DNA of 64,000 nucleotides from an uncultured Syntrophaceae bacterium (GCA_964492965.1 CAZBME010000006.1:5672-69671), one strand, 5' to 3'. Positions 24,306-62,913 are shown, counted from the first letter of the stretch. Notes: generated by a model not told the origin, from the letters alone. A program made the numbers and translations.

Positions 24306-24322
24306 TATTAGCAAACTCCGCT

Positions 24323-34000: not shown

Positions 34001-34302
34001 GCGACGGCCGTGTTGAGGCCCGTCTGGCCTCCAAGGGTCGGCAGGAGGGCATCGGGCCGCTCTCTGGCGATTATTTTGGCCACGGCCTCCGGTGTGATGG
34101 GCTCAATATAGGTGCGGTCCGCCGTTTCGGGGTCCGTCATGATGGTCGCCGGATTGCTGTTGATGAGGATGACTTCATAGCCTTCCTCTTTCAGGGCCTT
34201 GCAGGCCTGTGTTCCCGAATAGTCAAACTCGCAGGCCTGGCTGATGATGATGGGACCGGAGCCGATGATTAATATTTTCTTGATGTCCGTTCGTTTAGGC
34301 AT
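31081..34302 (-). CDS. carB: Carbamoyl-phosphate synthase large subunit
   Basis: 1073 aa with [37 protein letters not shown]. It has duplicated ATP-grasp halves and a C-terminal MGS-like domain. Confidence 0.95.
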
Positions 34303-37219: not shown

Positions 37220-39391
37220 TTAGCTGATAAACAGCATCTCCCAGAACTTCGGCATGGGCCACTCGTCATCGGCCACGATTCCTTCCAGGGCGTCGACGTA
37301 TTCGCGCAGTTCGTTCATCTTCGTCTTGACTTTCCCGCAGAGCATTTCGGCCTTTTTTTGTTCGTCGTGAATTGCTCCGGCCTTTTCGACTCTCGCCAGG
37401 ACCTCCTTGTTCGTCGCGTAGGCCTTATTGACCAGATCGACGAGGGTCTTGAGGATTTCCTGCTGGGCTGCAAGGTCAGCTCCTTTACCCAGGGCATCCC
37501 TCGTGCCGATGATGGTCTTCGCAAGGGTCTTCTGATAGGCCGTTACTGCGGGGATCACCTGATTCATGCACATATTGTTGAGGCATTTGACCTCTATCTC
37601 CAAGTCCTTGATGTATTTTTCGAGATAGATCAGATACCGGGACTTGAGTTCCACATTGGACAGGACCTTGTATTTGTCGAAGAGGTCGAGAGCCTTTTTA
37701 GTGACCAGGGCCTTCAGGGCCTCAGGCGTCGTTTTTGCGTTGGGAAGGCCCCGTTTGGCAGCTTCTTTTTCCCATTCGGCCGTGTAGTTGTCGCCGTTGA
37801 AAAGGATCCCCTTGATCTCCTTGATTTCCTTCTTCAGGACGTCGAAGACGGCCTGATTGATGTTTTTCCCATCCATGGCCTTGATCTTCGCCGCCATGTC
37901 GTCGAGGCTTTCGGCGACGATGGTGTTGATGACTGCCGCCGGGAAAGAGATGGACTGGGAGGAGCCGACGGCCCTGAATTCAAACTTGTTTCCCGTAAAG
38001 GCAAAGGGCGAAGTCCGGTTTCTGTCGGTGTTGTCCTTGCTGACGATGGGCAACGACGAGATGCCCAGATCGATAATGGCATGGTCCGTGGCCTTGGAAA
38101 TGCGACCCTTTTCTATGTCTTCGAGGATCTTGGTCAGTTGTTCGCCCAGGAAGATGGAGATGATGGCTGGCGGGGCTTCGTTTGCGCCCAAACGATGATC
38201 GTTGGCGTAGGACCCCACGGAGGCCCGAAGGATGTCGGCATGACGGTAGACGGCGCGGACGGTGGCAATGAGGAAGACGAGAAACTGGATATTGTCTTCA
38301 GGTGTGTTGCCGGGATTCAGGAGATTGTTCCCGTTATTGTCCGACAGAGACCAGTTTACGTGTTTGCCGGAGCCGTTGATGCCTGCGAAGGGTTTTTCAT
38401 GGAGGAGGCAGGCGAAATTGTGCTTTTTGGCCACGGACTTCATGGTGTCCATGACGATCTGGTTATGATCAACGGCAATGTTGGCCTCTTCAAACATGGG
38501 GGCGAGTTCGAACTGGCTGGGGGCCACTTCGTTGTGCCTCGTCTTGGCGGGAACGCCGAGCTTGAAGAGCTTCTCTTCCACATCGTGCATATAGGAAGAG
38601 ACCCGTTCCTTGATCGTGCCGAAATACTGATCCTCCAGTTCCTGGCCCTTTGCCGGAGGGGCACCGATGACGGCCCGGCCGCCGAGGACAAGGTCCTCAC
38701 GCTTGAAGAAGTAGTCCGTGTCGATGAGGAAATATTCCTGTTCCGGTCCCAGGGTCGAATAGACGCGCTTTACATTTTTGCTGCCCAGAATCTTGAGCAT
38801 GTTGACAGCGCTCTGGTTGACGGCCTTATTTGACCGCAGAAGGGGGGTCTTCTTGTCGAGGGCCTCACCCGTGTAGGAGATAAAGGCCGTCGGGATGCAG
38901 AGGGTGGTGGAAATGCCGTTTCTGCGGATGAAGGCGGGCGAAGAAATATCCCATGCCGTATAGCCGCGGGCCTCAAAGGTGGCGCGGATGCCGCCGCTGG
39001 GGAAACTCGATGCATCCGGTTCCCCCTGGACCAACTGCTTGCCGGAGAACCGCTCGATGACCTCGCCCATCCCGATGGGATCGACGAAGGCGTCATGCTT
39101 TTCCGCCGTAATACCCGTCATGGGTTGGAACCAGTGGGCGAAGTGGGTGGCGCCTTTTTCAAGTGCCCATTCCTTCAGGGCGTGCGCCACAATATTGGCC
39201 GTCTCGATGTCGAGAATCTTATCCTCATTGATGGCGTCAAGGACTTTTTTGTACGTGTCTTTCGGGAGCTTGACCTTCATGGCCTTGAGGCTGAAGGTAT
39301 CCTCGCCGTAATACTCCGATATGGGCGAGAACTTCTCCTTCTCAACAATGTCTTTTCTTTCTGCTGCGATTGTTGGGCTGATATTCTTCAT
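37220..39391 (-). CDS. glnN: Glutamine synthetase type III
   Basis: Part of track ORF 37220..39529. The start is taken at ATG 39391 (MKNISPTIAAE...; RBS GGAGGAATT immediately upstream). The roughly 723-aa size and GATHFAHWFQPMTG...NGSGKHVNWS are typical of GS-III. Confidence 0.9.
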   Translation of the reverse strand: MKNISPTIAAERKDIVEKEKFSPISEYYGEDTFSLKAMKVKLPKDTYKKVLDAINEDKILDIETANIVAHALKEWALEKGATHFAHWFQPMTGITAEKHDAFVDPIGMGEVIERFSGKQLVQGEPDASSFPSGGIRATFEARGYTAWDISSPAFIRRNGISTTLCIPTAFISYTGEALDKKTPLLRSNKAVNQSAVNMLKILGSKNVKRVYSTLGPEQEYFLIDTDYFFKREDLVLGGRAVIGAPPAKGQELEDQYFGTIKERVSSYMHDVEEKLFKLGVPAKTRHNEVAPSQFELAPMFEEANIAVDHNQIVMDTMKSVAKKHNFACLLHEKPFAGINGSGKHVNWSLSDNNGNNLLNPGNTPEDNIQFLVFLIATVRAVYRHADILRASVGSYANDHRLGANEAPPAIISIFLGEQLTKILEDIEKGRISKATDHAIIDLGISSLPIVSKDNTDRNRTSPFAFTGNKFEFRAVGSSQSISFPAAVINTIVAESLDDMAAKIKAMDGKNINQAVFDVLKKEIKEIKGILFNGDNYTAEWEKEAAKRGLPNAKTTPEALKALVTKKALDLFDKYKVLSNVELKSRYLIYLEKYIKDLEIEVKCLNNMCMNQVIPAVTAYQKTLAKTIIGTRDALGKGADLAAQQEILKTLVDLVNKAYATNKEVLARVEKAGAIHDEQKKAEMLCGKVKTKMNELREYVDALEGIVADDEWPMPKFWEMLFIS

Positions 39392-39459
39392 AATTCCTCC
39401 ATGTATATAAGATGTGTTGGTGACTTTATTCTTATCCTTCAGTTTATTGCCTGTGTTGC

Positions 39460-41793
39460 CTATTCCAGAGGGGTGTTTTCCACGAGCTCCCATATCCCGC
39501 AGGGGCAGGCCGCGGCACAAAAACCGCAACCGATGCAGCGGTCTCCATCCACAGCATACTCATAGGCATCTCCTGCCAATGTGTTCCGGGAGATGGCATT
39601 TTGCGGACAAAGGGTCTCGCAGAGTCCGCAGTCCCGGCAGGCGCCGCAGGAGGCGCATTGGCTCGAACAGGTGTTCAGGTCTCCCTGCGGGCTGACGCGG
39701 GGATTGTAATACTCCAGATGAATCCGAGCCGGTTCGATGGCCGGAAGGTTATCGTAGGTGTTCTGACGGCCCTGCAGGATATCGTCAATCGTCCTGGCGG
39801 CAATCCTGCCTGCGCCGATAGCCTCCGTCAGAAGACCTGGACGCACGGCATCGCCAATGGCGAAAACCTGGGGATCGCTCGTTTGATATCGGTCATTGAC
39901 GGCGATGAATCCTTTATCAAGGACAAGGTCTTCCGGAAGGAAGGGCATATCCGGCGCATCGCCGACGGCCATAATGACCGTATCAGCCGGGAGCAGTTCG
40001 CCATCGGTCAACTCCACGCCTTTTTCCGTAACGGCCTTGGTAAATTTCGGCCATAGAAATTTTGCGCCTGCGGCCTCGGCATGCTTCCGCTCAACGCCGA
40101 AGGAAGCCGGTTCCTGAATGTCTATCAGGGTGATCTCTTTGGCGCCCAGGCGCGCAGCTTCAGCGGCGGCATCGCAACCCACATTGCCGGCGCCTATGAT
40201 GACGACCTGACGGCCGACCTGAATCTGATTTGCCTTGCTCAGCCGGAGGAAATCCAGGGCGGCCATAGCCATTTCCTGGCCCGGCACGGAAATCCTGCGG
40301 GGTTTTTGCGCCCCTGCCGCAATGATCACCGCATCATGTTTCCCTTTGATTTTCTGAAACTCCTTTTTCGTGAGGGGCTTCTTCAGGTACACCTGACTGA
40401 TCTGATCCTGGATTCGCTTCAGTTCATGGCCCACGACCTCGTCGGGGATGCGGCTCTTGGGAATCGTGGCGGTGATCTTCCCACCCAGACTCTCTTCCTC
40501 CTCGTAGACCACCGGTTGATGGCCCATCATCCACAACTGCCAGGCGGCGGAAAGACCTGCCGGACCGCCGCCGATGATGGCGGCCGTCTTTCCCGAAGTT
40601 GGGGCTGGTGTCGGTAATTTCGCCGATAGGGAGGCCTTTCCGAGACCGGCCACGTCCAGTGTGGGCATCTGCATGATCTGACGTGTACAATTTGCCATAC
40701 AGAGGTTTGGGCACAGATAACCACAGACGGTTGCCGGGAAGGGGGTATAGGTCAGGGCCAGATCCACGGCTTCATCCATTTTCCCCTGGCGGATGAGGCT
40801 CCAGCGCTTCTGAACGGGTATTCCCGTCGGGCAGGAGGCTTGACAGGGGGGGAGGTGCTTTTCGTTTTCCCAAAAGGGAATATAGCGTCGCAGTTCGCCT
40901 GCGGGAATGATGTCGATGACGTCCCGGGCAATATCCGTCAGGTCGCCGATGAGGCCGCTTTTCCCCAATTCCTGTTCCCATACTTCTTCACGAAACTGAT
41001 GGAGGCTCCGGACGGTTTTGCCTGCTTTCTCGTAGGGTTTGCGGGCAACAAGGATCTGCCAGGCGGAGCGGTCGGCGGTAAGGATCGCATACAATTCCGT
41101 TCTCCCGACAGACTTGAGGAACGTCGCCATGTTATCCTTCAGCCATTTCCAATCGGCGTCGTCGAGAACGGTCAGCTTGGCATCTTCTTCGCTGAAGCCT
41201 TGATGGGGACCCCGGAAGAAAATCTTGCCGCTTACCATCCCCACGCATGGGCGGTAGCCCATAATGTTTTCGTAACGCGGGGTATCGTGTCCGCAGACCA
41301 CGGCAATGCCGCCGGCCATAAATTCGGCAAAGGAATCACCGACGCTGCCCAGGACCCAGAGTTCCGGGGGGTTGAAACGGGGGTTCTGCTTGGTCATCGT
41401 CATGCCCCGGGCGCCGATATCCCCGACGATATAAATCTTTCCCTGAGCCATGGCATTAGCCACGCCGTTTGAGGCGTGACCACGAACAATGATCTGTGCG
41501 CCGGCGTTAAGCCAGCCCACATCGTCGGAACAAGGACCAAAGACGTCGATGGTGGTATTGGGAAGTCCCATGGAACCCACACGTTGCCCTGCCGATCCGA
41601 GGACGCGGATCAGGATTTCTTCTTCGTCGGCCTTCCAGAGGCGGCCTCCGATACCATGTTGCCCGTAGGCGTGAATCTCTATGCAGCGATGTCCCTTCCT
41701 GACCGCCTCCTGAAGGGACGCCTCCAGGGTTCGTGTATTCACCCTGACGCCGTCTTTCATTCCCGGAATGATGATGGTGGGTTTATATGGCAT
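39460..41793 (-). CDS. Glutamate synthase GXGXG-domain protein fused to GltD-like NAD(P)H oxidoreductase and a C-terminal 2x[4Fe-4S] ferredoxin
   Basis: 777 aa. The N-terminus reads IEIHAYGQHGIGGRL...VLGSAGQRVGSMG...VRGHASNGVANAM...VGDIGARG (GXGXG). The middle reads CQASCPTGI...AAIIGGGPAGLSAAWQL...VVIIGAGNVGCDAA (GltD). The end reads CASCGACRDCGLCETLCP...CIGCGFCAAACP. Confidence 0.85.
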   Translation of the reverse strand: MPYKPTIIIPGMKDGVRVNTRTLEASLQEAVRKGHRCIEIHAYGQHGIGGRLWKADEEEILIRVLGSAGQRVGSMGLPNTTIDVFGPCSDDVGWLNAGAQIIVRGHASNGVANAMAQGKIYIVGDIGARGMTMTKQNPRFNPPELWVLGSVGDSFAEFMAGGIAVVCGHDTPRYENIMGYRPCVGMVSGKIFFRGPHQGFSEEDAKLTVLDDADWKWLKDNMATFLKSVGRTELYAILTADRSAWQILVARKPYEKAGKTVRSLHQFREEVWEQELGKSGLIGDLTDIARDVIDIIPAGELRRYIPFWENEKHLPPCQASCPTGIPVQKRWSLIRQGKMDEAVDLALTYTPFPATVCGYLCPNLCMANCTRQIMQMPTLDVAGLGKASLSAKLPTPAPTSGKTAAIIGGGPAGLSAAWQLWMMGHQPVVYEEEESLGGKITATIPKSRIPDEVVGHELKRIQDQISQVYLKKPLTKKEFQKIKGKHDAVIIAAGAQKPRRISVPGQEMAMAALDFLRLSKANQIQVGRQVVIIGAGNVGCDAAAEAARLGAKEITLIDIQEPASFGVERKHAEAAGAKFLWPKFTKAVTEKGVELTDGELLPADTVIMAVGDAPDMPFLPEDLVLDKGFIAVNDRYQTSDPQVFAIGDAVRPGLLTEAIGAGRIAARTIDDILQGRQNTYDNLPAIEPARIHLEYYNPRVSPQGDLNTCSSQCASCGACRDCGLCETLCPQNAISRNTLAGDAYEYAVDGDRCIGCGFCAAACPCGIWELVENTPLE

Positions 41794-41816
41794 GGGGAAC
41801 TCCTGCTTCCTTCATC

Positions 41817-43451
41817 TTATAAAACATAGCGGATCTGAAGCCTTTCGGCGGCAGCGCTGTCGGCAATACCCAGGGCGTCGGACATGCCTATTGGCAGGGA
41901 GGTTGAACGGCCGAGAGGCGCCATGATCTTCTTCAGCTCCTGGTCGAAGCTCAAATAGACATCAACAAGGCGCTCCGCCACTTTCTCCGGGTCCAGACGC
42001 CGATAAAGCCTGGGGTCCTGGGAAGTGATGCCTTTGGGACACAAGCCGATATTGCAGATGTTGCAGCGATCGCTCTCGGAACCAAGGCACCCCGCCGCCG
42101 CCTGCATGATATATTTGCCAATCTGAACGCCGCTGGCGCCCAGCATGATCAGGGCCGCGGCATTGGCGGCCAGATTGCCGTTCTTGCCGATGCCGCCCCC
42201 CGCAAACAGAGGGATTTCGTTCTGCTTGCCGATTTTAACCAGCGTCATATAGGCGTCGCGAATGTTACTGGCTATGGGGTGCCCCATGTGATTCATGGAA
42301 ACATTATAGGCCGCGCCTGTGCCGCCGTCCTCGCCGTCGATGGCGAGCCCTGCCGCATAGGGGTTTCTCGTCAGGTTGTTCAGGACGGCAAGAGTTGTGC
42401 TCGTCGCGGAAATTTTGGGATAGACGGGCACCCGAAATCCCCAGGCCATGGCCATGGACTGGATCATCTTTGCCACCGATTCTTCAATGGAATACTGGGT
42501 CTGGTGCGTCGGCGGACTGGGGAGATTTATTCCCTGCGGGACGCCACGGATGGCGGCGATGAGCTTGTTGACCTTGTACCACATGAGAAGGCCGCCGTCA
42601 CCGGGCTTCGCGCCCTGGCCGTATTTGATCTCGATGGCGCAGGGGTCTTCCTTCATGTCCGGCAGGGCATGGATGATTTCATCCCAGCCGAAGTATCCGC
42701 TGGCGATCTGCAGAATGATGTACTTCAGAAACCGGGACCGCAAGAGCCGCGGCGGACATCCGCCCTCGCCCGTAGAAACACGAACCGGCATTCCCTTCTC
42801 TTCGTTCAGGTAGGCGACACCCATCTGGATGCCTTCCCACATGTTCGGCGACAGGGCGCCGAATGACATGCCGCCGATGATCAAGGGGTAGATCTCCCGT
42901 ACGGGAGGAACCCAGCCATTCTCGTTCATGGTTTTGACCAGATCTTCCGCCGGAAGAATTCTGCCCAGAAGGGTGTGGAGTTCGAAATCGTGGCGGCCTG
43001 CATCGAGGGCCGGATCCGTGAGCATAGAGATGCGGATGAACTTGATTTCGTCGAGCACACTGCGGGGATCGTTGCGCCGGCCGCCCCGGCGGCGTGGGAC
43101 ACCACCCTGATTGATATGGAAACGGAGCTTGTCAATCTCTGTGCTGCGGATAGGTTGAATGCACCGGTTCGGACAGGCGAGATCGCACATGCCGCAGCCG
43201 ATGCAGGCATGGGCCGGATCGGTTCGCTGATCGATGCCGTGATAGACTGTGAAAAGATTACCCGGTTTCTCCTCCAGTCCGACAGTTGTCTGAACGATAC
43301 GTTTGCGGTGAACGCCCAGTTCGATGGCCCGGACGGGGCATACGGCAGTACAACGGCCGCAGAGGGTGCAGGTCTCCTTATCCCAGACGATTTGCCAGGG
43401 AAGATCGCTTGTGCTCAGGGTAGAAGGGCCTATCTTTCCCATTGATTCCAT
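41817..43451 (-). CDS. Glutamate synthase FMN-binding subunit with N-terminal ferredoxin domain (archaeal-type)
   Basis: 544 aa with CTLCGRCTAVCP...CIGCGMCDLACP, GGMSFGALS, TGEGG, YGQGAKPGDGGLL, IDGEDGGTGAA and AGGGIGKNGNLAANAAALIMLGASG. RBS AGGAGG lies 7 nt before ATG 43451, and the gene overlaps the upstream gene by 22 nt. Confidence 0.85.
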   Translation of the reverse strand: MESMGKIGPSTLSTSDLPWQIVWDKETCTLCGRCTAVCPVRAIELGVHRKRIVQTTVGLEEKPGNLFTVYHGIDQRTDPAHACIGCGMCDLACPNRCIQPIRSTEIDKLRFHINQGGVPRRRGGRRNDPRSVLDEIKFIRISMLTDPALDAGRHDFELHTLLGRILPAEDLVKTMNENGWVPPVREIYPLIIGGMSFGALSPNMWEGIQMGVAYLNEEKGMPVRVSTGEGGCPPRLLRSRFLKYIILQIASGYFGWDEIIHALPDMKEDPCAIEIKYGQGAKPGDGGLLMWYKVNKLIAAIRGVPQGINLPSPPTHQTQYSIEESVAKMIQSMAMAWGFRVPVYPKISATSTTLAVLNNLTRNPYAAGLAIDGEDGGTGAAYNVSMNHMGHPIASNIRDAYMTLVKIGKQNEIPLFAGGGIGKNGNLAANAAALIMLGASGVQIGKYIMQAAAGCLGSESDRCNICNIGLCPKGITSQDPRLYRRLDPEKVAERLVDVYLSFDQELKKIMAPLGRSTSLPIGMSDALGIADSAAAERLQIRYVL

Positions 43452-44545
43452 ATTACAACCTCCTGCCGGTGCGGCGGGATCATGACCGTGTCATATTTCA
43501 TGGGCTGGAAATCTTCACTCTTGTTCCGGGCCGGGATGGCTGCATCCAGGCCGCACATTTCCGAGGATAAGGCGTACATGCCACAGGTTCCCCCAACAAT
43601 TCCGGGGCGAAGCTTTTTGCTGTCCTGCACCATAAAGATCGTTCGATCGGGCAAGCAACCGATCACACAATTCGGGCCGTCAATAATCAGGGGCCGGCAG
43701 GCGTGCTTGAGGGCTCGCAGACGCTCTCCATTGGGATGACGATCGAGTTCTTCATCCTTAAGAGGCGTGAGGATATGCTTGTACATATCCAGGTCCATGC
43801 CGAGCTTTTTCCGGGCAAAGTGGAGGGTGTGGGTAAGAACCTCTGAATCGGACTGGTAACCCACATAGCCGGCATAATTCCGGGAGGCTAGGTATTCACG
43901 AATGGGACCAAAAGCGGTGTTTTCGCCATTGGTCATCGTGGAAAACCCCTGAATAAAGAAGGGGTGGCACGCATAGATATCGATGGCGTAATTCGTGTTC
44001 TGCCTGCCTTGAGCCAGAATGATCCGGGCCTGGAATTCTTCGTTGTCGAGTCCCAGGTACTCGGCAAGGGTAAGAGGATCGCCTACCTCCTTAATCATGA
44101 TCACATCGGGCCAAAAACTGAAGACCATCATGGACCCGTCCTGTTTCCCCATTTGTTGAAGTTTGAGGCGCGTGAGCATAAGGCGGTATTCGATTTCTTC
44201 GTTGCTCAGGGAGTTCCAGTCCGGAGGATAGTCGTAGACCCGGACGAGATAATTGTCCCTTTTCGGCGTTCCCGGGGGCGGTGTTTTGGCCGGCCGGATG
44301 GAGAGCTTGTATTTAATCATGAAGTCCAGATCCATCATGTAGCGATCCAGGGTCCGGATGCCCTCGTTGGAAAAGATACCCGACAGAATCGGCGCGCCTT
44401 TGAAGCGTTCGAAGGTTCCTCCCAGATCGGTCAGAAACAATCCCACCCCGGATCCATCATGGCCTTCTTTCATGACGTTCAAGGCATGAATGGCGGTCAT
44501 GGGCGAAAGGGGCTCCTGGCTTGTGATGGCAAATAATCGGCACAT
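43430..44545 (-). CDS. Glutamate synthase class-II glutamine amidotransferase subunit (stand-alone)
   Basis: 371 aa beginning MCRLFAITSQ (Cys directly after Met, as in Ntn-GATases), then HDGSGVG...TNGENTAF. It is the first gene behind the sigma-54 promoter at 44613-44628. Confidence 0.85.
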   Translation of the reverse strand: MCRLFAITSQEPLSPMTAIHALNVMKEGHDGSGVGLFLTDLGGTFERFKGAPILSGIFSNEGIRTLDRYMMDLDFMIKYKLSIRPAKTPPPGTPKRDNYLVRVYDYPPDWNSLSNEEIEYRLMLTRLKLQQMGKQDGSMMVFSFWPDVIMIKEVGDPLTLAEYLGLDNEEFQARIILAQGRQNTNYAIDIYACHPFFIQGFSTMTNGENTAFGPIREYLASRNYAGYVGYQSDSEVLTHTLHFARKKLGMDLDMYKHILTPLKDEELDRHPNGERLRALKHACRPLIIDGPNCVIGCLPDRTIFMVQDSKKLRPGIVGGTCGMYALSSEMCGLDAAIPARNKSEDFQPMKYDTVMIPPHRQEVVIWNQWER

Positions 44546-46582: not shown

Positions 46583-49186
46583 ATGGTCATGGTGTCTTTT
46601 ACCCGAGTGAGTTCCGGTGTTAAGGGCTTGGATGAAATCCTGAGCTATCTGCAGTCGGGTGACAATGTTGTCATGCAGGTGGACGACATAGAGGATTACA
46701 AATCCTTTGTCATTCCTTTTGTCAACACCGCCCTGGAGAATCATGAACGGGTTGTTTATATGCGCTTTGCCCGTCATGCCCCGCTGCTCGAGGCAACGGG
46801 CAAAGTCAAGATTTATAAACTGAACGCCGACACCGGGTTTGAGTCGTTTTCCACGCAGGTTCACAACATTATCCGGCAGGAAGGCCGTGATGTTTTTTAT
46901 GTTTTCGACTGTCTGTCCGATCTTCTCCTGGCTTGGGCGACAGACCTGATGATCGGAAATTTCTTCGTCATCACCTGCCCTTATCTGTTCGAGCTCAATA
47001 CGGTGGCCTATTTTGCCATTCTGAGGAGCCGTCACTCCTTCAAGACCGTTGCCCGGATTCGGGAGACCACCCAAGTCCTTCTGGATATTTACAATTATCA
47101 GGGCAGGATCTGCATCCATCCTTTAAAGGCCTGGCATCGTTATTCGCCCACCATGTTTCTGCCGCATATCAAGGAAGGCAATACCTTTACCCCTATCATG
47201 AGCAGCGTGGACGCGACAAACCTGTTCTCCTTCCTGGGCCAGAAGAGCACGGTCAATGCGGAACGGCATCTGGATTATTGGGATCGCATCTTCCTTCAGG
47301 CCCAGGAAAGCGTTGCCGATGATTCACCGGAAGCCGCCCAGGAAAAGCAGGAGATGGTCGAACAGCTCTCGCGGATACTGATCGGCCGTGAAAAACGGAT
47401 GTTAGCATTGGTCAGAGACTACTTTACTCTGGAGGATCTTCTGGAGATAAAAGACCGGCTGATCGGCACCGGTTTTATCGGCGGCAAGTCCGTGGGTATG
47501 CTCCTGGCGCGGAATATCTTGCGGCAGGACAAATCCCTGGATTGGCAGGTTCATCTTGAGCGCCACGATTCCTACTATATCGGTTCGGATGTTTTTTACT
47601 CCTATATGGTGCAGAATGGCTGGTGGAAGCTGCTCATGTCCCATAAAACCAAAGAGGGATACTTTGAAATTGCCAAGGAATTAAAGAGCAAGATGCTCCG
47701 CGGTTCCTTCCCTATGGAAATCAGGGAACAGTTTCAGCTCATGCTGGAATATTATGGCCAGTCTCCCATCATTGTCCGTTCCAGCAGTCTGCTGGAAGAC
47801 GCTTTCGGCAACGCTTTTGCCGGCAAGTATGAGAGCTATTTTTGTGCCAATCAGGGAACACCGGAACAGAGATTAGAAAATTTTGAAGAGGCTGTACGTC
47901 GTGTCTTTGCCAGCACCATGAACGAAGACGCCCTGACCTACCGCCTCCAGCGGGACCTGGACAGGCAGGACGAGCAGATGGCCCTCCTGATCCAGCGCGT
48001 GTCCGGTTCCTACCGGAAGCATTATTTTTTCCCGGATATTGCCGGTGTGGGTCTCTCTTACAACACCTTCGTCTGGAAGCAGGGCATGGACCCAAAGGCG
48101 GGGATGCTCCGCCTCGTTTTCGGCCTGGGGACGCGGGCGGTAAATCGTGTGGAAAATGATTATCCGCGTATTGTCGCCCTCGATGCACCGCTGGTGAAGG
48201 CCCATTCCGGGTTGAATGACGCCCGTCGCTTTTCCCAGCACGACGTAGACCTCCTTAATCTGGAAGAAAACCGTTTTCAGTCTCTGTCTCTGACCCAGAT
48301 CATTGAGGAGGGCCTGGACACCAAAATGGAACTCTTCGGAATACGCGACCTGGTGTCATCGGAACGAATGCGGGCCATGGGCCGGCCTTCTCAGGATTTC
48401 TGGATTCTTACCTTTGATGAATTCCTGGCGGCGACGGACTTTCCCCAGACCATGTCCGCCATGCTCAAGGCCCTCGAAACGGTCTACCAGTATCCTGTTG
48501 ACATTGAATTTACAGGTAATTTCAATCTGGATGGGAAGTTGCAGATCAACCTCCTCCAGTGCCGTCCCTTCCAAACGAAAGGGCAGAATGTTCGGGTCGC
48601 CATTCCGGAGAAAATTCCGGCGGATCATATCCTGCTCAGGCAGGAAGGGAATTTCATGGGGGGGAGCGTTTCCCAGCCCATATCCAGAATCATCTATATC
48701 GATCCCCTGAGCTACACAAAACTGTCCCTTTCAGAAAAGTATGATGTCGCACGCATCGTGGGTCGCTTGAACAAGTTGATCGAAAGCCGCAGCGATGTGC
48801 CGACCCTTCTTTTGGGACCGGGTCGATGGGGAACGACGACGCCGGCCATGGGGGTGCCCATCACTTTCTCAGAGATCAACAATATCTCGATTATCGCGGA
48901 AATCGCCTACAAGGACGGCAGCCTGATTCCCGATCTGTCTTTCGGGACCCACTTCTTCCAGGATCTCGTCGAGATGGATGTTTTCTATATGGCCATTTAT
49001 CCCGACCGGGATCATGTCTTTTTCAACACGCCCTGGATGGAGGCACGTCCCAACATCATGGCGGCTCTGTCGCCCCGGGACAGCAACTACGCCGCCGCGG
49101 TGCGCGTTTATGACGTGACAAATGAAGGCTTGAGGCTTTTGTCGGATGTGGTGACGCAGAAGTTGATCTGTTTCAAGCAGTCATAG
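46583..49186 (+). CDS. PEP/pyruvate-binding (PPDK_N, ATP-grasp) domain protein with an N-terminal degenerate KaiC/RecA-like domain
   Basis: 867 aa. The N-terminus SSGVKGLDEILSYLQSGDNVVMQVDDIEDYKS resembles the KaiC/RadA GLDE..L..G motif, but the Walker-A GxxGxGKT/S position reads VDDIEDYKS. The middle region has GGKSVGMLLA...VRSSSLLEDAFGNAFAGKYES, typical of the PPDK/PEP-synthase nucleotide-binding domain. I saw no phosphohistidine swivel or TIM-barrel PEP domain. Confidence 0.7.
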   Translation: MVMVSFTRVSSGVKGLDEILSYLQSGDNVVMQVDDIEDYKSFVIPFVNTALENHERVVYMRFARHAPLLEATGKVKIYKLNADTGFESFSTQVHNIIRQEGRDVFYVFDCLSDLLLAWATDLMIGNFFVITCPYLFELNTVAYFAILRSRHSFKTVARIRETTQVLLDIYNYQGRICIHPLKAWHRYSPTMFLPHIKEGNTFTPIMSSVDATNLFSFLGQKSTVNAERHLDYWDRIFLQAQESVADDSPEAAQEKQEMVEQLSRILIGREKRMLALVRDYFTLEDLLEIKDRLIGTGFIGGKSVGMLLARNILRQDKSLDWQVHLERHDSYYIGSDVFYSYMVQNGWWKLLMSHKTKEGYFEIAKELKSKMLRGSFPMEIREQFQLMLEYYGQSPIIVRSSSLLEDAFGNAFAGKYESYFCANQGTPEQRLENFEEAVRRVFASTMNEDALTYRLQRDLDRQDEQMALLIQRVSGSYRKHYFFPDIAGVGLSYNTFVWKQGMDPKAGMLRLVFGLGTRAVNRVENDYPRIVALDAPLVKAHSGLNDARRFSQHDVDLLNLEENRFQSLSLTQIIEEGLDTKMELFGIRDLVSSERMRAMGRPSQDFWILTFDEFLAATDFPQTMSAMLKALETVYQYPVDIEFTGNFNLDGKLQINLLQCRPFQTKGQNVRVAIPEKIPADHILLRQEGNFMGGSVSQPISRIIYIDPLSYTKLSLSEKYDVARIVGRLNKLIESRSDVPTLLLGPGRWGTTTPAMGVPITFSEINNISIIAEIAYKDGSLIPDLSFGTHFFQDLVEMDVFYMAIYPDRDHVFFNTPWMEARPNIMAALSPRDSNYAAAVRVYDVTNEGLRLLSDVVTQKLICFKQS

Positions 49187-50740: not shown

Positions 50741-51772
50741 TCATACATGGGCAGAACTGAATTGGTCCAATACCAGATCGAACGGTAAAAGGTTGCCGTA
50801 TTCCATGACCGACGACATCCCCCGATTATCCACATCCATGCCCAGTTCCTGAACATAGGCGGAAGGATTGAGGCCGCCGATGAGGATAATGCCGATTTTA
50901 TTGATATCCACAGGAAACTGGCAGACGGGCTCGCTGATCTCGCCTGTCTTGAGGACGCCGTTAATGCCTGCCGCCTGCAGTTTTTCCAGTAGGGCTCTCG
51001 TCAGGGGATAGCAGGGCGCAGGGATTTCGCGGAAATTGGCCAGAATCATGCCTTCACCGCTTTCCACGGCCTGGCCGACAGAGGTCATCTTGCCCCGGAT
51101 GAAGATCTCCGAGGGATCAAGGGATGAACCGGAATAATAAATGAGCTCACCGAACCGCAAGGCTTGCCGGTGTTTTACCTGCAGAATGCCTCCGAACTTG
51201 GAATCCATAGGAATGCCGTTTTTCAGGAGAACGCCGTTGACGACAATGCTGCAGATCGTCGCCAATCCCATCTTGCCTTCGGGTACGATAATGGATCCCA
51301 GGCGCTCGCCTTCTCCGGCCACGGCCACAAGGTTGCTTACGGCAAATCCGGCATTAAAAACGGGCCGCATGAACTTCAGAACGGCGGGGAATGTGGCCTT
51401 GCGGAAAAAGGAGAGGTTCACCGGCACGAGTCCCTGCCGTGTTTCAGGGTTGAACGTTGTTTGGTAAGCCAGAACCTCAATGCGTGAGATGGCCAGGCCC
51501 ACCTTGTCCCGGACCCGGGCCTTGCTTAGTTCATCAAGGCCCCTGTCCGTAATGACTCGCCCGTCCTTCTGGCCGATCAACCTTGTCAGTCCCCGTTCGT
51601 CCATCAGTTTCAAGTGATAACGAATGGCCCTTTCGCTCGGCATGACGCCCATCTCCTGCATGCGGCGGGCGATAAGTCGCGACCCGATGGGTCCCTGCAC
51701 CTCGGAAAGGGCGCGCAAAATCATGAGGGTTTTGCGTTCGATATCTTCGTGATTGGTAAAAACTGAAACCAT
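50741..51772 (-). CDS. nrpR: NrpR-family nitrogen repressor homologue (winged HTH plus one NrpR/DUF128 regulatory domain)
   Basis: Part of track ORF 50741..51778. I prefer ATG 51772 (RBS AAAGGATGG). The N-terminus ILRALSEVQGPIGSRLIARRMQEMGVMPSERAIRYHLKLMDERGLTRLIGQKDGRVITDRG resembles the methanogen NrpR wHTH (ERAxRYHLKxxDExGLT) as I remember it. The roughly 340-aa size fits the HTH plus single-domain type. Confidence 0.7.
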   Translation of the reverse strand: MVSVFTNHEDIERKTLMILRALSEVQGPIGSRLIARRMQEMGVMPSERAIRYHLKLMDERGLTRLIGQKDGRVITDRGLDELSKARVRDKVGLAISRIEVLAYQTTFNPETRQGLVPVNLSFFRKATFPAVLKFMRPVFNAGFAVSNLVAVAGEGERLGSIIVPEGKMGLATICSIVVNGVLLKNGIPMDSKFGGILQVKHRQALRFGELIYYSGSSLDPSEIFIRGKMTSVGQAVESGEGMILANFREIPAPCYPLTRALLEKLQAAGINGVLKTGEISEPVCQFPVDINKIGIILIGGLNPSAYVQELGMDVDNRGMSSVMEYGNLLPFDLVLDQFSSAHV

Positions 51773-51798
51773 CGGCAATAGGCCATCCTTTGCCGATT

Positions 51799-54855: not shown

Positions 54856-57705
54856 TTACTCGTACATCTCCATCAGCAACTCCAGAATCTTCTGCTGGTT
54901 GGGCGAGGTCGGGTCCGTCGCCATATTGACGGCGTCCCGGGTCGTGTAGAAGGCGATTTCCTTCAGCGCCTCCTTGGGGATGCCGTGGGCCTTCAGGCTG
55001 AGCGGGATTTCCAATTCCCGGTAAAGATACAGAAGGCTTTCCTCAAGATCGTTCGAACGATTGATGAGGTAGGCCATATCCATGAAAGCTTCCTTGCAGG
55101 TTTCCTTGTTGGCTTTGACAAAACCTAAAAGCCCGAAGATGGCCGCCCGGCCGTGAGGCAGGTGGTAATGGGCGCCCAGGGTATGGGTCAGGGCGTGTCC
55201 GATGCCCAGTCCTTTGAGGAAGGCCAGTCCGCCGCACATGGCTGCCATGCACAGGTCGGTCCGGGCCTGGATGTTGTTCCCGTCTTTATAGGCCGGGATC
55301 AGGCTTCGGCCGATGAGCTTCACGCCGTAGAGGGCCATGGATTCGAAATAGGGGTGATAGGGCGTGGCCAGGGAAACGTAGCCTTCGATGCAGTGGGCCA
55401 GGGCGTCTATCCCCGAGTCGATGGTCAGGCCGGGGGGCATGGTCTTGCAGAAGTGGGGGTCCACCACGGCGAGCTTGGGGATGAAATGGTTGCTCATCAG
55501 AATGAATTTCAAGTCCCGTTCTTTGTCGGTCAGCACGGCGCAGGGGTTGACCTCGCTTCCCGTTCCCGAGGTGGTGGGGATGCAGATAATGGGAGGAAAT
55601 ATCGGTTTGATCTTGCCGCCGCCGCCGACGAGGCCTTCGTACTCCCGCAGGTCGCCGCTGTGGGTGACCCGCAGCCCAAGCGTCTTGGCCGTATCCAGGG
55701 AACTGCCGCCGCCTAGGCCCACAATGCCGTCACAGCCGTTTTCCTTGTAAAGCTTGCCTGCCCGTTCAATTAATTCAATGGGCGGATCGGGTTCCACGTC
55801 GGGGAAAATGACCGTTTCTATGCCGCTCTTCTCCAGGATCCGGCGGACCTCTTCGGCCCGGCCGCTTTTGAACAGGAAAGGATCAGTGACGAGGAAAGCC
55901 TTGGAAACATTCAGTTGCTTGATCCGTGGGCCCATGGTCTGAGCAACCCCGGCGCCCAGCATGACATCGGGCAGGGGAGGGATGCGGACTTCCCAGACCT
56001 TTTCTTTTTCCCTGAATGAATCCAGGCCGCTCCAGAGGTTCCGGACTTCGTTTTCATCCACGTCAAAGACGGCGTCCGTCGGCTTGATCGTTTCTTCCCG
56101 AACAAAGGCCGGCATGTCCAGATCCATCTTGCTGAATTCGGCCTTTTCGTTGAAGGCCAACTGGTCCCGAAGGGTCTGCTTGCCGACTTCCATAACATCT
56201 TCGGGGGTCATATGGAGCCCGAAGCGGGCATTCATCAGATCGGCAAAGAAGGGGTAAACGGATTTGCCTCCGGGTACGGAATTGAGGCAGTAGCCGAAGG
56301 CATCGCAGGCGGCCGACTGGATCTGTGATTTCAGTGAGTTCTCCGTCTGTTTGTTCTTGTCTTTGGGTAAGCGGTAGGTCAGTCCCGCCGTATGATCCGC
56401 TCCCATGGGACTTGTAAAATAGGTCATGCCGGTTCCTTTGACCGACCGCGGATCGTGGGCTGGCAAGGCTTGTCCTTTGAAGGCGGGCACCCGCTTAACG
56501 CCCAAATGCCGGGCGGTGGCAACGACGCCATTACCAAGGGCGACGCCCAGAGGTGTTTCCTTTTCGATTTCTTCCAGAAGGCGCATGGCCGCTTCCCCAT
56601 CACCCCAGGCCATTTCCCCCGCCTCCGCCGCAACGCCCAGAGCGCTGCCTGCTTCAACGCCGTCCACACCAAGGTCGTCGCACATGAATTTGAGCCGGGC
56701 TATGGCATCGTTGTCGGTGATGCCCAAGTTGGTGCCCAAAAGGGCTATCAATTCATATTCATAGGCACCACAGATCTTCTTGCCGTCTTTATCGGGGTAG
56801 ATAATGGAACACTGGACGAGGCATCCGGGCATGCAGCCGTGCATCTTGCCTCCCCGGTCGTAGAGGATTTTCTGAATGGCGTTGCCGCTGACGGCGATGA
56901 AGTTTTCCGGCCGACCGGAACGATAGTTGTTTGCGGGCAGAGTCCCATGGCTGGCCGAGTTGTTGATCGCAAAAGGGGTGCCGAATCGTGAGAAAAGGCT
57001 GCAACTGATGTCATGTTTGAGGACATTTGCCCAGGCCCTGACAATTTTTCTGAAGGCTTCCGGATCGGCAATGTCGGCCTGATCGGCCTGCGCGGGATCG
57101 AGAATGATCGCTTTGAGCCCCTTCGACCCCATGACGGCGCCGAGTCCGCCGCGGGCGGCGTTGCGCGAAGGATCGCCGAAGATGTCCGTCAGGGAAACAG
57201 AGGCGCCTTTATATTGTCGTTCTCCCGCTACGCCTGTAGAGATGACGGCAATCTTGTCCCCGAATTTCTTCTGCAGCGAAGAGACCAGCTCATAGTTCTT
57301 CATCCCCCGGTATTCATCGGCGGCAATAAGTTCAGCCTTGTCTTTGGAAACCAGCAAGCAATAGGATTGCTTGTTCTGGGCGATGCCCTGCACAATAATG
57401 GCGCGAATACCCAGACGGTCGAGGATCTGACCGGCAGGCCCCCCCGAATTGGCCTCCTTGATGCCCATGGTGAGGGGGCTTTTAGCGCCTACGGAGATTC
57501 GGCCCAGTTGCGGGGCTCTGGTCCCTGCCAGAGGACCGCAGGCTACGATCAAGTGGTTTTCCGGACCCAGGGGATCCGCCATGGGCGGTACCTCCTGGGT
57601 CATGATCTTGGCGAGCAGGGCGCTGCCTCCTAGGTATTTCCACTGCTCCGGCAGATTTTCAAATGTGATTTTTTCATCCCCCAGCATGACCCTTAAAATT
57701 TTCAT
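54856..57705 (-). CDS. Fusion protein: tungsten/molybdopterin aldehyde:ferredoxin oxidoreductase (AOR family, about residues 1-570) plus iron-containing alcohol dehydrogenase (about residues 590-949)
   Basis: A single uninterrupted 949-aa ORF, with RBS GGGAGGGG. The AOR part has LGGSALLAKIM...GPLAGTRAPQLGRISVGAKSPL, a Cys cluster HGCMPGCLVQC, SPMGADHTAGL and ACDAFGYCLNS. The ADH part has GLGGGSSLDTAK, PTTSGTGSE, DALAHCIE and GHALTHTLGAHYHLPHG. Confidence 0.85.
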   Translation of the reverse strand: MKILRVMLGDEKITFENLPEQWKYLGGSALLAKIMTQEVPPMADPLGPENHLIVACGPLAGTRAPQLGRISVGAKSPLTMGIKEANSGGPAGQILDRLGIRAIIVQGIAQNKQSYCLLVSKDKAELIAADEYRGMKNYELVSSLQKKFGDKIAVISTGVAGERQYKGASVSLTDIFGDPSRNAARGGLGAVMGSKGLKAIILDPAQADQADIADPEAFRKIVRAWANVLKHDISCSLFSRFGTPFAINNSASHGTLPANNYRSGRPENFIAVSGNAIQKILYDRGGKMHGCMPGCLVQCSIIYPDKDGKKICGAYEYELIALLGTNLGITDNDAIARLKFMCDDLGVDGVEAGSALGVAAEAGEMAWGDGEAAMRLLEEIEKETPLGVALGNGVVATARHLGVKRVPAFKGQALPAHDPRSVKGTGMTYFTSPMGADHTAGLTYRLPKDKNKQTENSLKSQIQSAACDAFGYCLNSVPGGKSVYPFFADLMNARFGLHMTPEDVMEVGKQTLRDQLAFNEKAEFSKMDLDMPAFVREETIKPTDAVFDVDENEVRNLWSGLDSFREKEKVWEVRIPPLPDVMLGAGVAQTMGPRIKQLNVSKAFLVTDPFLFKSGRAEEVRRILEKSGIETVIFPDVEPDPPIELIERAGKLYKENGCDGIVGLGGGSSLDTAKTLGLRVTHSGDLREYEGLVGGGGKIKPIFPPIICIPTTSGTGSEVNPCAVLTDKERDLKFILMSNHFIPKLAVVDPHFCKTMPPGLTIDSGIDALAHCIEGYVSLATPYHPYFESMALYGVKLIGRSLIPAYKDGNNIQARTDLCMAAMCGGLAFLKGLGIGHALTHTLGAHYHLPHGRAAIFGLLGFVKANKETCKEAFMDMAYLINRSNDLEESLLYLYRELEIPLSLKAHGIPKEALKEIAFYTTRDAVNMATDPTSPNQQKILELLMEMYE

Positions 57706-57993
57706 GACCCCTCCCGTTCGATAGAAGTGAACCCTTTTATTACTGTAAATAAATGCATTGGCTTATGGAAATGAATTTTGAACAGGCAGAGTATATGAAG
57801 CCCAGGGGTCTGCGTCAAGTTTTTTTAAAGAAAATGCCGAATGATTTGAAGTCTCTATGCCGAAAATGACATAGGATGATCCGGTGGAGGGCTTATGGTT
57901 GATCCGTCCGGACGGCATGAGGAACTAAACGGTTGATATAGCGCTGTTTTTGAGACGGGCAATTATCTCCCGTATCGAATGCGGGATAAATTT

Positions 57994-58023
57994 TGAAACA
58001 GGGCGTTTTCCAACGCCCTGTTT
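57994..58023. terminator. Perfect 13-bp-stem hairpin 40 nt downstream of the purF-like gene (terminator-like, no proper U-tract)
   Basis: GAAACAGGGCGTT (57994-58006), loop TTCC, then AACGCCCTGTTTC (58011-58023). On the minus strand it is followed by AAAATTTAT. Confidence 0.4.
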
Positions 58024-58063: not shown

Positions 58064-59440
58064 TCAGAGGGGACGGACGCCGTCCCAGCATTTCAGGCAG
58101 AGGTCCTGCCGCGGGATGCCCAGGGCGGATACGAAGGCATCTATGCTGTTGTATTTGACGGAGTCGGCATCGATTTGTCCGGCGATCCATGTTTCGAGAC
58201 ATCTCAGATCTTCCAGATCCTGAATCTGGCCTGTGGGAAAACACTGACGGGCCACCAGCTCGTCCAGAGAGCGGGTGGAAACGCCGAAATCGCAGGGATA
58301 CAGCAGAGGAGGGCAGGCAATCCGCACGTGCACTTCCCTGGCCCCGGCCTTTTTAAGGTCCCGGACCTTGTCCCGGATCTGGGTGCCCCGGACGATGGAG
58401 TCATCGCAAATCACGATTTTTTTCCCCTCCACGGCGTATTTCAGGACCGATAGTTTCCGCTTGGCCATCCTTTCCCGGGCACCCTGGCTGGACTGGGTAT
58501 AGCTCCGGTCGGCATAACGGTTATAAAGAAAGACATCCTGGTAATGAATCTTGGAATGTTCATGATAACCCAAGGCGTGGCCGATGCCGGACATGGGCAC
58601 GGGGGCGACGATGTCCGCCGTCATGCCCTGCTCCTCAATGTCACGCTGCGCAAGACTCCGGCCAAGGTGGTTGCGGGCCTCCTGAACGTATAACCCGTCG
58701 ATAATGGAATCGATACTGGCCGTGTAAGCCCATTCGAAACAGCAGTGGGCCTTGCGGGGAGACGGGAGTTGCTTCAGGGTTTGAAATCCCTTCTCATTAA
58801 TCAGGACGATTTCACCCGGCCGGACATCGCGGTAGATGTCCATGTCCATGTTTTGAATGGCCCGCGATTCGGAGCTTACGGCGAAGCGTTTTGCGTCCTG
58901 GCCCAGGATAAGAGGACGGAAGCCGTAAACGTCCCTTGTTGCATAGATGCCTTCCGCGGAGAGGATGACAAGGGCATAGGCCCCTTTGACCCTTTGAGCC
59001 AAAGCCGTGAGGCCGGAGACCATGTCGTCGGCTTCCATGATGGTTTTGGCGATGACTTCGATATTATAACCCCGGTAGAAAGCATGCCCCTGATTCTTCA
59101 TCTCTGCGATCAGGGACTCGGCGTTGATGATGTTCCCGCTGAAGGCAAGCGATATTTCCCCGAGCCTGGATTGCCATGTCATGGGTTGCCTTTCCCAGAG
59201 ACTCACATGCCCTATGCCCCATCGGCCGTGAAGATATTCAAGATCCTGCTCCGAAAAGGCAATACCGGCCTTGCCGTGGTGAGTTACCTGACGGATGCCC
59301 TTGTCATAGGTGGAAATGCCGCAGAATTCCTGCCCCCGGTGCTGAAGAAAGTCAATGCCGTTGTAGATATCATAGGTGCAAGGAGACTGGGAGTAGAGAC
59401 CAAAAATGCCGCAGTTGTCTTTTAGTTCGCTCATAACCAT
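58064..59440 (-). CDS. Divergent amidophosphoribosyltransferase-like protein (Ntn-GATase plus PRTase plus Fe-S Cys pattern), second copy
   Basis: 458 aa. It keeps NCGIFGLYS, HRGQEFCGI, FSGNI, ICDDSIVRGTQ and the Cys residues (AHCCFEW, ACPPLLYPCDFG, CLKCWDG). However, the canonical GHVRYSTTG reads GHVSLWERQ. Confidence 0.7.
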   Translation of the reverse strand: MVMSELKDNCGIFGLYSQSPCTYDIYNGIDFLQHRGQEFCGISTYDKGIRQVTHHGKAGIAFSEQDLEYLHGRWGIGHVSLWERQPMTWQSRLGEISLAFSGNIINAESLIAEMKNQGHAFYRGYNIEVIAKTIMEADDMVSGLTALAQRVKGAYALVILSAEGIYATRDVYGFRPLILGQDAKRFAVSSESRAIQNMDMDIYRDVRPGEIVLINEKGFQTLKQLPSPRKAHCCFEWAYTASIDSIIDGLYVQEARNHLGRSLAQRDIEEQGMTADIVAPVPMSGIGHALGYHEHSKIHYQDVFLYNRYADRSYTQSSQGARERMAKRKLSVLKYAVEGKKIVICDDSIVRGTQIRDKVRDLKKAGAREVHVRIACPPLLYPCDFGVSTRSLDELVARQCFPTGQIQDLEDLRCLETWIAGQIDADSVKYNSIDAFVSALGIPRQDLCLKCWDGVRPL

Positions 59441-59448
59441 CCTTTAAA

Positions 59449-59510
59449 GATCAATGATCAATCAACCGTTGTCAATTATCACGAGAGGGGCCTTTAATTG
59501 ATAATTGATC
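59449..59510. repeat. Operator-like repeat array between carB copy 2 and the purF-like gene
   Basis: GATCAATGATCAAT (59449-59462) matches the reverse complement of ATTGATAATTGATC (59497-59510) at 13 of 14 positions. An internal third copy, TCAATTATCA (59472-59481), is a perfect 10-bp inverted repeat with TGATAATTGA (59499-59508). Confidence 0.5.
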
Positions 59511-59521
59511 ATGGGCCATTG

Positions 59522-62725
<3,204 letters not shown>

Positions 62726-62913
62726 GGGGAAATCTCCTTGATTTGTCACGAATTTGTATCGATATGCTGCATTTTTTGAACATAATTGTCTAAAAGTCTG
62801 CGTTATATAGGAAAGTTGTCGGGCGATGTCAAGGAGTATTGTGCTAATGACTATATCATTGAATTTACGGCTGCAACGACTTGGTTCACCCGTATTTGCG
62901 AACCATTTTTATC

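Follow-up and report, generated by a model that had tools for sequence, protein, structure and literature searches.

A recurrent one-chain fusion of an aldehyde:ferredoxin oxidoreductase with an iron-containing alcohol dehydrogenase in Syntrophaceae and other lineages, a probable alcohol/acid oxidoreductase

A fused gene for an aldehyde:ferredoxin oxidoreductase (AOR) and an iron-containing alcohol dehydrogenase (Fe-ADH) was analysed in a stretch of 64 000 nucleotides from an uncultured Syntrophaceae bacterium (GCA_964492965.1, CAZBME010000006.1:5672-69671), which at its full length is referred to as the window. The gene lies at 54856..57705 on the minus strand, starts with ATG and runs uninterrupted through 949 codons to a stop codon at 54856-54858. 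The open reading frame (ORF) check bore out the single 949-aa ORF of the original prediction, which had been made from the sequence alone and had not given the strand, and all motifs quoted there were found again: HGCMPGCLVQC (residues 289-299), GADHT (435-439) and DAFGYC (468-473) in the AOR half, and GGGSSLDTAK (665-674), DALAHCIE (767-774) and HALTHTLGAHYHLPHG (837-852) in the ADH half. An identical protein is present in the NCBI collection (P0001). The GC content at third codon positions is 0.71 for the fusion gene and 0.62-0.74 for its neighbours, a native-like composition.

A Pfam domain search of the 949-aa protein returned four domains, each far over its curated cut-off (29.8 and 27 bits for AFOR_N and AFOR_C, respectively). 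From the N-terminus, on the minus strand throughout, these are AFOR_N (residues 2-202, 57100..57702, 196.9 bits), AFOR_C domains 2 and 3 (residues 222-541, 56083..57042, 175.2 bits, profile positions 3-345 of 385), the Rossmann-like N-terminal domain of the Fe-ADH (residues 580-750, 55456..55968, 163.6 bits) and the helical domain ADH_Fe_C (residues 761-947, 54865..55425, 124.3 bits). The two modules are separated by a C-terminal tail characteristic of a clade of short AORs (residues 542-563, ...PTDAVFDVDENEV..W.GLD, 56017..56082, minus strand), where free-standing relatives stop, and by a conserved inter-module linker of fixed length (residues 564-579, FREKEKVWEVRIPPLP, 55969..56016, minus strand). 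The closest solved relative of the AOR half is Pyrococcus furiosus AOR (1aor; E 2.7e-60, query residues 5-526), and those of the ADH half are NAD-dependent methanol and 1,3-propanediol dehydrogenases (E 1e-50 to 1e-59, query residues ~579-948).

The spread of the architecture was followed by a protein-cluster search of a 5.8-billion-protein collection, from which the best 120 clusters were examined, and by a genome scan with one genome per GTDB species, which gave 93 relatives, 80 of them taken into the locus counts. The same domains in a full-length single ORF were present in all of the 120 clusters (76-100% identity, 941-967 aa), which originate from NCBI, JGI, ENA and Logan. An intact single ORF spanning query residues 1-949 at 55-85% identity was present in approximately 62 of the 80 species genomes, and the others are frameshifted or interrupted by contig ends. 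The hosts are metagenome-assembled genomes (MAGs) named Smithella/Smithellaceae, Syntrophaceae, Syntrophales, Syntrophobacteraceae, Desulfomonilaceae, Desulfobacteraceae and Desulfatitalea, and some carriers are closed chromosomes (for example OY820932.1 and CP070660.1). In this way the fused architecture, for which the original prediction had a single example, was found in 183 distinct full-length fused proteins, and the sequencing or assembly frameshift that it had kept in mind is not what lies behind the gene. The single-polypeptide AOR-ADH fusion is real. Public annotations name one half only, either as 'iron-containing alcohol dehydrogenase' or as 'aldehyde:ferredoxin oxidoreductase'.

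Copy number and length vary in a few carriers. Tandem pairs of fused genes are found in three Smithellaceae/Syntrophaceae genomes (L012 4929-10850, L014 743-6609 and L015 4944-10850), the second copy being ~71% identical to the query, which suggests subfunctionalization of the paralogues, for instance to differing substrates. On a closed MAG chromosome (CP070704.1, L075 8001-10139) a 712-aa copy, perhaps a shortened variant or one in decay, matches query residues 1-651 only, and its ADH part stops after ~75 residues.

Active-site residues were checked in the 183 fused proteins, which are 56-100% identical. In AFOR_N, Arg69, Asn86 and Arg181 are invariant and match Arg76, Asn93 and Arg182 of P. 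furiosus AOR; by alignment to 1aor they are predicted to make the pterin phosphate and Mg contacts. Also invariant are the pterin motifs D343-D-L-G-V-D348 (D-x-x-G-x-D) and D468-A-F-G-Y-C473 (D-x-x-G-x-C), together with Thr243, Tyr317/Glu318 (P. furiosus Tyr312/Glu313) and His438 (His448). In P. furiosus AOR numbering, Thr243, Glu313, Tyr427 and His448 are the conserved AOR active-site residues (PMC13328260). The predicted ligands of the [4Fe-4S] cluster, three in C291-x3-C295-x3-C299 (56809..56835, minus strand) and the fourth at C473 (56287-56289, minus strand), are invariant as well. In the ADH half this holds for G665-G-G-S668, the dinucleotide-binding motif of the Fe-ADH domain, and for Asp767, His771, His837, His841 and His851. 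Alignment to 8zrl predicts Asp767, His771, His837 and His851 as the metal ligands of ADH_Fe_C, an Asp/His/His/His set that we take to be the one of FucO and ADH2. Asp608 is kept in 182 of the 183 proteins, at the position that favours NAD over NADP in FucO-type enzymes. The original prediction presupposed retained ligands, and none of the pterin, Fe-S and metal ligands has been lost across the set; of the four AOR active-site residues, three are kept throughout and the fourth, Tyr427, is replaced by His417 in 181 of the 183 proteins.

Conservation is spread evenly over the protein. Both halves have a mean identity to the query of 0.75-0.78, the 16-residue linker, at 0.81, is conserved at least as well as the halves, and 179 of 181 family members share a length of 46 residues for the segment 540-585. 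Equal conservation and a fixed linker together indicate that purifying selection maintains two functional active sites in a constant arrangement, and on these sequence grounds both halves look active.

Structure prediction, which the original prediction had proposed for the inter-domain interface, was performed with AlphaFold using an alignment of 103 sequences (24 close homologues had given a pLDDT of 45). It yielded a confident full-length model with a mean pLDDT of 91.3 and a pTM of 0.86, of low confidence only at residues 571-573, in the linker (pLDDT <50), and at residues 691-700. In Foldseek searches the AOR half superposed on 1aor (TM 0.85, rmsd 2.3 Å, 29% identity) and also on the Clostridium autoethanogenum AOR, and the ADH half on 3bfj, 3owo, 8zwd and FucO (TM 0.89-0.92); no solved chain spanning both halves was among the matches. 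Since the pTM is normalized over all 949 residues, and 0.86 exceeds the value that one confidently placed module of 60% of the chain could reach, the model suggests that the confidence of the prediction extends to the placement of the two modules relative to each other.

In an exhaustive HMMER search against 1.84 billion representatives, the AOR half proved to belong to a large clade of AORs that stand alone as proteins of 557-580 aa, are 36-51% identical to it over residues 1-~560 and end exactly at the start of the linker; P0124 (568 aa), for example, matches query residues 1-564. Cultured Geobacter, Geotalea and Pelobacter propionicus have AORs of this short clade, 576 aa in length. These free-standing proteins, among them P0124 and P0140, share the C-x3-C-x3-C spacing and the C-terminal end point of the fusion but, unlike it, have no ADH module. 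The original prediction had named C-x2-C-x3-C for the Pyrococcus enzyme, and the difference from C291, C295 and C299 held up on alignment with P. furiosus AOR. The C-x3-C-x3-C motif is at least 90% conserved in 103 short-clade AORs, and being shared with the free-standing proteins, the spacing and the short C-terminus are traits of the clade and not effects of fusion. HMMER aligned Cys288 of P. furiosus AOR to a Met of the query; the loss of the first Fe-S Cys that this would imply was rejected, the alignment being most simply explained by gap placement. With a one-residue insertion, C291, C295 and C299 would correspond to Cys288, Cys291 and Cys295 of the P. furiosus enzyme. Two further members of the clade carry extra residues without a Pfam match, ~160 of them N-terminal in P0240 (734 aa) and ~215 C-terminal in P0217 (782 aa), and the short-AOR clade seems prone to fusions.

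Fusions of the same two families were also found outside the query family. The order AOR→ADH recurs in P0125 (977 aa; 'Ca. Tharpellaceae' and Deltaproteobacteria MAGs) and in P0128/P0146 (949 aa), and the order ADH→AOR is found in P0205/P0232 (~1,026 aa; L081 8001-11081) and, as a separate lineage, in P0233 of Heimdallarchaeota (1,004 aa). The P0205 family comprises ~70 clusters in Firmicutes (Oscillospiraceae, Anaerovoracaceae), and its AOR half, with the canonical C-x2-C-x3-C and a full-length AFOR_C, is 60-69% identical to free-standing AORs of ~630 aa from Desulfosporosinus and Oscillospiraceae. In the reverse-order fusions as a group, P0205/P0232 and P0233 alike, the AOR half is canonical, of full length and with C-x2-C-x3-C. 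A neighbour-joining tree of AORs (94 taxa, 560 columns, 200 bootstraps) placed each of the three AOR→ADH lineages as sister to unfused short AORs: the query family grouped with P0124 (bootstrap 1.0), P0125 was nested among four free-standing proteins (0.99) and P0128/P0146 fell inside a 17-member clade (0.77). The ADH halves of these three lineages are only 29-34% identical to each other. From these sequence comparisons we infer five fusion lineages, three AOR→ADH and two ADH→AOR (Firmicutes and Heimdallarchaeota). Repeated fusion in both orders is strong comparative evidence that the AOR and the ADH function together.

At one locus (L089 1-6879) a P0125-type fusion follows same-strand genes for DUF1302, DUF1329, BNR-repeat and MMPL transporter proteins. 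This set is presumably associated with the uptake of hydrophobic compounds, and it hints at long-chain alcohols or aldehydes as substrates in the P0125 lineage.

In the window, a sigma-70-like promoter (TTGACG-17-TATACT, 57790..57818, minus strand) matches 10 of 12 consensus positions, as a match only, ~85 nt upstream of the ATG, and a Shine-Dalgarno-like GGGAGGGG (57708..57715, minus strand) was read from the sequence just upstream of it. Just after the upstream amidotransferase gene, a 10-bp perfect hairpin AAACAGGGCG...CGCCCTGTTT was read at 57996..58023 (minus strand); a terminator scan did not flag it, the T-tract being weak. It may be the terminator of the amidotransferase gene and so leave the fusion gene monocistronic. 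On the other side, a gene for a PAS histidine-kinase/receiver protein converges on the fusion gene. Promoter, ribosome-binding site, upstream hairpin and convergent downstream gene together suggest that the fusion gene is transcribed separately in the window.

The neighbours are genes of nitrogen assimilation, namely NrpR, glutamate dehydrogenase, glutamate-synthase-like genes, a class-II amidotransferase and carB. Several of them are duplicated (21666-44545 and 58064-62749): there are two pairs of carB and class-II amidotransferase genes (29660-34302 and 58064-62749) and two split glutamate-synthase-like sets (21666-25804 and 39460-44545), besides a type III glutamine synthetase (37220-39529), glutamate dehydrogenase and a sigma-54 activator. 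The NrpR-type repressor (50741-51778, minus strand; Pfam NRD1_2 and HTH_12, 270 bits) stands beside the glutamate dehydrogenase gene, in a genome that appears deltaproteobacterial; NrpR is familiar chiefly from methanogenic archaea, as their nitrogen regulator. The window further encodes an 867-aa protein (46583-49186, plus strand) with a PPDK_N (ATP-grasp-like) domain only at residues 299-677 and long N- and C-terminal regions without a Pfam match.

In other genomes the fusion gene often lies in same-strand operons of acyl-CoA metabolism. At ~16 of the 80 loci (cluster A) the order is thiolase, abfD, fusion, large acyl-CoA dehydrogenase, thiolase, thiamine-diphosphate enzyme and Zn-ADH/quinone oxidoreductase. 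The abfD gene is found upstream of the fusion gene at L001 (6329-7807) and ~15 other loci, flanked by the thiolase and a 610-aa acyl-CoA dehydrogenase; further loci with abfD are L002, L007, L011, L012, L015-L017, L022, L035, L043, L057, L065 and L071. The gap from abfD to the fusion gene has a median of 194 nt. The abfD product scores 769 bits against 1u8v, has the cluster ligands C-x3-C and H-x6-C and is thereby a true 4-hydroxybutyryl-CoA dehydratase. At eight of the 80 loci (cluster B) genes for glutaconyl-CoA-decarboxylase-like alpha and beta subunits precede the fusion gene, and an acyl-CoA dehydrogenase, an enoyl-CoA hydratase and succinate dehydrogenase/fumarate reductase subunits follow it; at seven (cluster C) the order is hydrolase, SnoaL, GNAT-like, fusion and short-chain dehydrogenase/reductase. 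The abfD neighbour points to C4 hydroxy-acid/crotonyl-CoA metabolism for at least part of the fusion family, and the substrate is not fixed thereby. A small WorX/ThiS-like partner was looked for upstream of the fusion gene and not found, the small ORFs there being universal stress proteins or unknowns, and no Fe-S subunit gene recurs in the 80 loci. A role of the abfD-linked copies in the propionate dismutation of Smithella, by way of carboxylation, succinate, 4-hydroxybutyrate and butyrate, was considered and rejected on labelling data: in the work of de Bok et al. in 2001 labelled bicarbonate was reportedly not incorporated and a six-carbon intermediate was inferred.

Taken together, the fused protein is probably a bifunctional oxidoreductase for alcohol↔aldehyde↔acid that needs neither CoA nor ATP and uses NAD(H) and ferredoxin. 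The one-protein alcohol/acid oxidoreductase of the original prediction thus gains support from intact sites, equal conservation of the halves, the structural model and recurrent fusion. The two complete modules would carry out consecutive two-electron steps on one carbon. The C-terminal group-III Fe-ADH would interconvert a primary alcohol and the aldehyde with hydride transfer to or from NAD(H), and the N-terminal AOR/WOR module, with a bis-pyranopterin metal cofactor and one [4Fe-4S] cluster, would interconvert the aldehyde and the free carboxylic acid, the cluster exchanging electrons with ferredoxin. The metal is presumably tungsten. The conserved linker of fixed length would hold the modules in a defined arrangement, so that the aldehyde may be made and consumed within one protein. 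The acetaldehyde/ethanol couple lies at ~-197 mV and the acetate/acetaldehyde couple at ~-580 mV. The uphill oxidation of the alcohol would be pulled by the strongly downhill oxidation of the aldehyde and, in reverse, the difficult reduction of the acid by the reduction of the aldehyde, with neither CoA nor ATP involved in the interconversion. For a Syntrophales-type host the oxidative direction appears somewhat the likelier, because it would give NADH and reduced ferredoxin 1 : 1, as consumed by electron-confurcating hydrogenases and formate dehydrogenases; by analogy with acetogens and Thermoanaerobacter, the reductive direction would be equally feasible chemically. Metal, electron carriers, channelling, direction and substrate are all predictions, drawn from the intact sites and from genome comparison.

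Several points weigh against this assignment. The spacing of the first Fe-S Cys is unlike that of every solved AOR, and no characterized AOR of the short clade was found in the literature. The position of P. furiosus Tyr427 is occupied by His417 in 181 of the 183 fused proteins, and judged by sequence this exchange may be a specificity determinant. Neither half reached an NCBIfam equivalog cut-off: among the Fe-ADH equivalogs scored (ErcA, 4-hydroxybutyrate dehydrogenase, choline dehydrogenase, lactaldehyde reductase, EutG and others), the best scores of the ADH half were 256.6 (cut-off 550), 249.6 (500) and 247.9 bits (550). An unfused ancestral state was looked for beside the sister genes, and the P0124-type AOR genes had no adjacent ADH gene. 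Finally, the window copy appears to be monocistronic amid nitrogen-assimilation genes, a context silent on function. As to residue 417 itself (codon 56455-56457), His is also found in the sister P0124 and Tyr in most other short AORs, P0125 and P0128.

Other explanations were weighed against the bifunctional enzyme. That two adjacent genes were joined artificially, by a frameshift or a lost stop codon, has a negligible probability: nothing supports it, the few split relatives being mostly low-coverage or long-read MAGs (L059, L070, L074, L076 and L080), and it conflicts with 183 distinct full-length fusions from independent projects, with the closed chromosomes OY820932.1 and CP070660.1 and with a conserved, length-fixed linker. 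A substrate-specific C4 hydroxy-acid enzyme in place of a general alcohol/acid converter is possible, though rather unlikely. In one form, succinate would be linked to 4-hydroxybutyrate without CoA, the ADH half being a 4-hydroxybutyrate dehydrogenase and the AOR half interconverting succinate semialdehyde and succinate; in the other, 1,4-butanediol would be oxidized via 4-hydroxybutanal to 4-hydroxybutyrate; in both, the product would feed AbfD and so yield crotonyl-CoA. The one-strand order thiolase, abfD, fusion, large acyl-CoA dehydrogenase at ~16 of the 80 loci, the 769 bits of the abfD product against 1u8v, the eight cluster-B loci with glutaconyl-CoA decarboxylase and succinate dehydrogenase/fumarate reductase subunits and the presence of 4-hydroxybutyrate dehydrogenase in the top three NCBIfam matches of the ADH half (249.6 bits) argue for it, and AbfH of Clostridium, the partner of abfD, is likewise an Fe-type ADH. 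That score is, however, half of the cut-off of 500 and is equalled by those for ErcA and choline dehydrogenase; among solved chains, the Hbd-type 30sm is a far weaker match (1e-18) than the methanol dehydrogenases, no CoA-transferase lies within four genes either side of the fusion gene in the abfD operons, and abfD is absent from most loci, the window included.

It is less probable still that only one half is catalytic, with the Fe-ADH serving a structural, oligomerization or regulatory (ErcA-like) role or the AOR being a cofactor-less relic. The regulatory ErcA is indeed the top NCBIfam match of the ADH half (256.6 bits, under its cut-off of 550), AdhE shows that Fe-ADH domains are able to drive the assembly of filaments (PDB 6tqh, 8uhw), and the L075 copy has dispensed with all but the beginning of its ADH. 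Against this stand checked residues that are invariant in all 183 proteins except Asp608 (182) and His417 (181), equal constraint on both halves, and independent fusions in both orders that retain complete domains. Least plausible among the functional readings is that the ADH module serves the AOR as a port for electrons of NAD(P)H, which would make the protein an NAD-linked AOR like AorABC of Aromatoleum, with no second substrate site; this we consider very improbable. NAD-linked AORs do exist as class III WORs (PMC13328260, PMC9295118), but these depend on a subunit with FAD and on a chain of Fe-S clusters, whereas the Fe-ADH fold offers a site for neither flavin nor Fe-S and passes hydride only to a bound carbonyl, and residues 580-949 hold no flavin or Fe-S motif.

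The bifunctional enzyme proposed here resembles AdhE in being one polypeptide with an N-terminal aldehyde-oxidizing module and a C-terminal group-III Fe-ADH, in which the aldehyde would be kept within the protein, and its ADH half matches the ADH domain of AdhE (PDB 7dag, 6tqh, 8uhw). It differs in its N-terminus, a pterin/[4Fe-4S] AOR instead of a CoA-acylating domain of the aldehyde dehydrogenase (ALDH) family; the AdhE model NF010378 covers the ADH part only (profile positions 480-762, 203.6 bits against a cut-off of 951), and Pfam found no Aldedh domain in the fusion. The acid side is predicted to be the free carboxylate and not acyl-CoA, and the second carrier ferredoxin and not NAD(H). 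In acetogens, Thermoanaerobacter and Pyrococcus, an AOR and an ADH of the same two families work one after the other as unlinked proteins, with the chemistry and electron carriers that are predicted for the fusion (PMC10816221, PMC12096430). The fusion differs from them by its covalent joining through a conserved linker. In ethanol-grown Desulfovibrio, too, a W-AOR and an NAD-ADH are separate enzymes.

The 2026 classification of WORs by Putumbaka et al. sorted 4,064 WorL proteins into 92 clades and five subunit-based classes, with a physiological role known for five of the 92 clades only (PMC13328260). The fusion is most like class I (PfAOR, BmWOR, CsWOR87; PMC13328260), with a single large subunit and one [4Fe-4S] cluster. 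No WorS, WorN or WorABC gene adjoins it in the window, the neighbours being the histidine kinase and amidotransferase genes, and ferredoxin is the presumed carrier. It departs from class I in its second, NAD(H)-dependent module in the same chain, in C-x3-C-x3-C, in the Tyr427 to His exchange and in the missing last ~40 profile positions of AFOR_C, and from characterized AORs generally in that its AOR comes from a shorter clade (29% identity to 1aor). Neither that classification (PMC13328260) nor a 2025 review of tungsten enzymes mentions a fused architecture, and full-text literature searches returned no description of a natural AOR-ADH fusion, the matches to 'fused' being His-tags or unrelated proteins; this agrees with the statement in the original prediction that no characterized fused enzyme was known.

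The fusion is a recurrent, well-supported architecture of two well-known enzymes already known to act in series. A much larger claim would be that fused WorL-ADH proteins are a distinct, unclassified class of tungsten enzymes that arose ~5 times in Bacteria and Archaea, that they channel the aldehyde in a CoA- and ATP-independent carboxylate/alcohol interconversion, and that the abfD-linked Smithellaceae/Syntrophaceae copies catalyse a direct succinate-to-4-hydroxybutyrate (or diol-to-hydroxy-acid) step that feeds crotonyl-CoA; that all of this should hold jointly is doubtful.

To our knowledge, AORs are the only enzymes that reduce non-activated carboxylic acids. Their pairing with an ADH underlies acid-to-alcohol bioconversion, and a natural one-chain version is absent from the newest WOR classification. 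Recurrent fusion in both orders provides strong comparative evidence that alcohol/acid conversion is a physiological job of otherwise uncharacterized AOR clades in syntrophs and sulfate reducers, and the fusion makes this role directly testable with one recombinant protein. If the proposed function is true, the enzyme would supply NADH and reduced ferredoxin 1 : 1 for confurcating hydrogenases, which would be relevant to the energetics of syntrophy.

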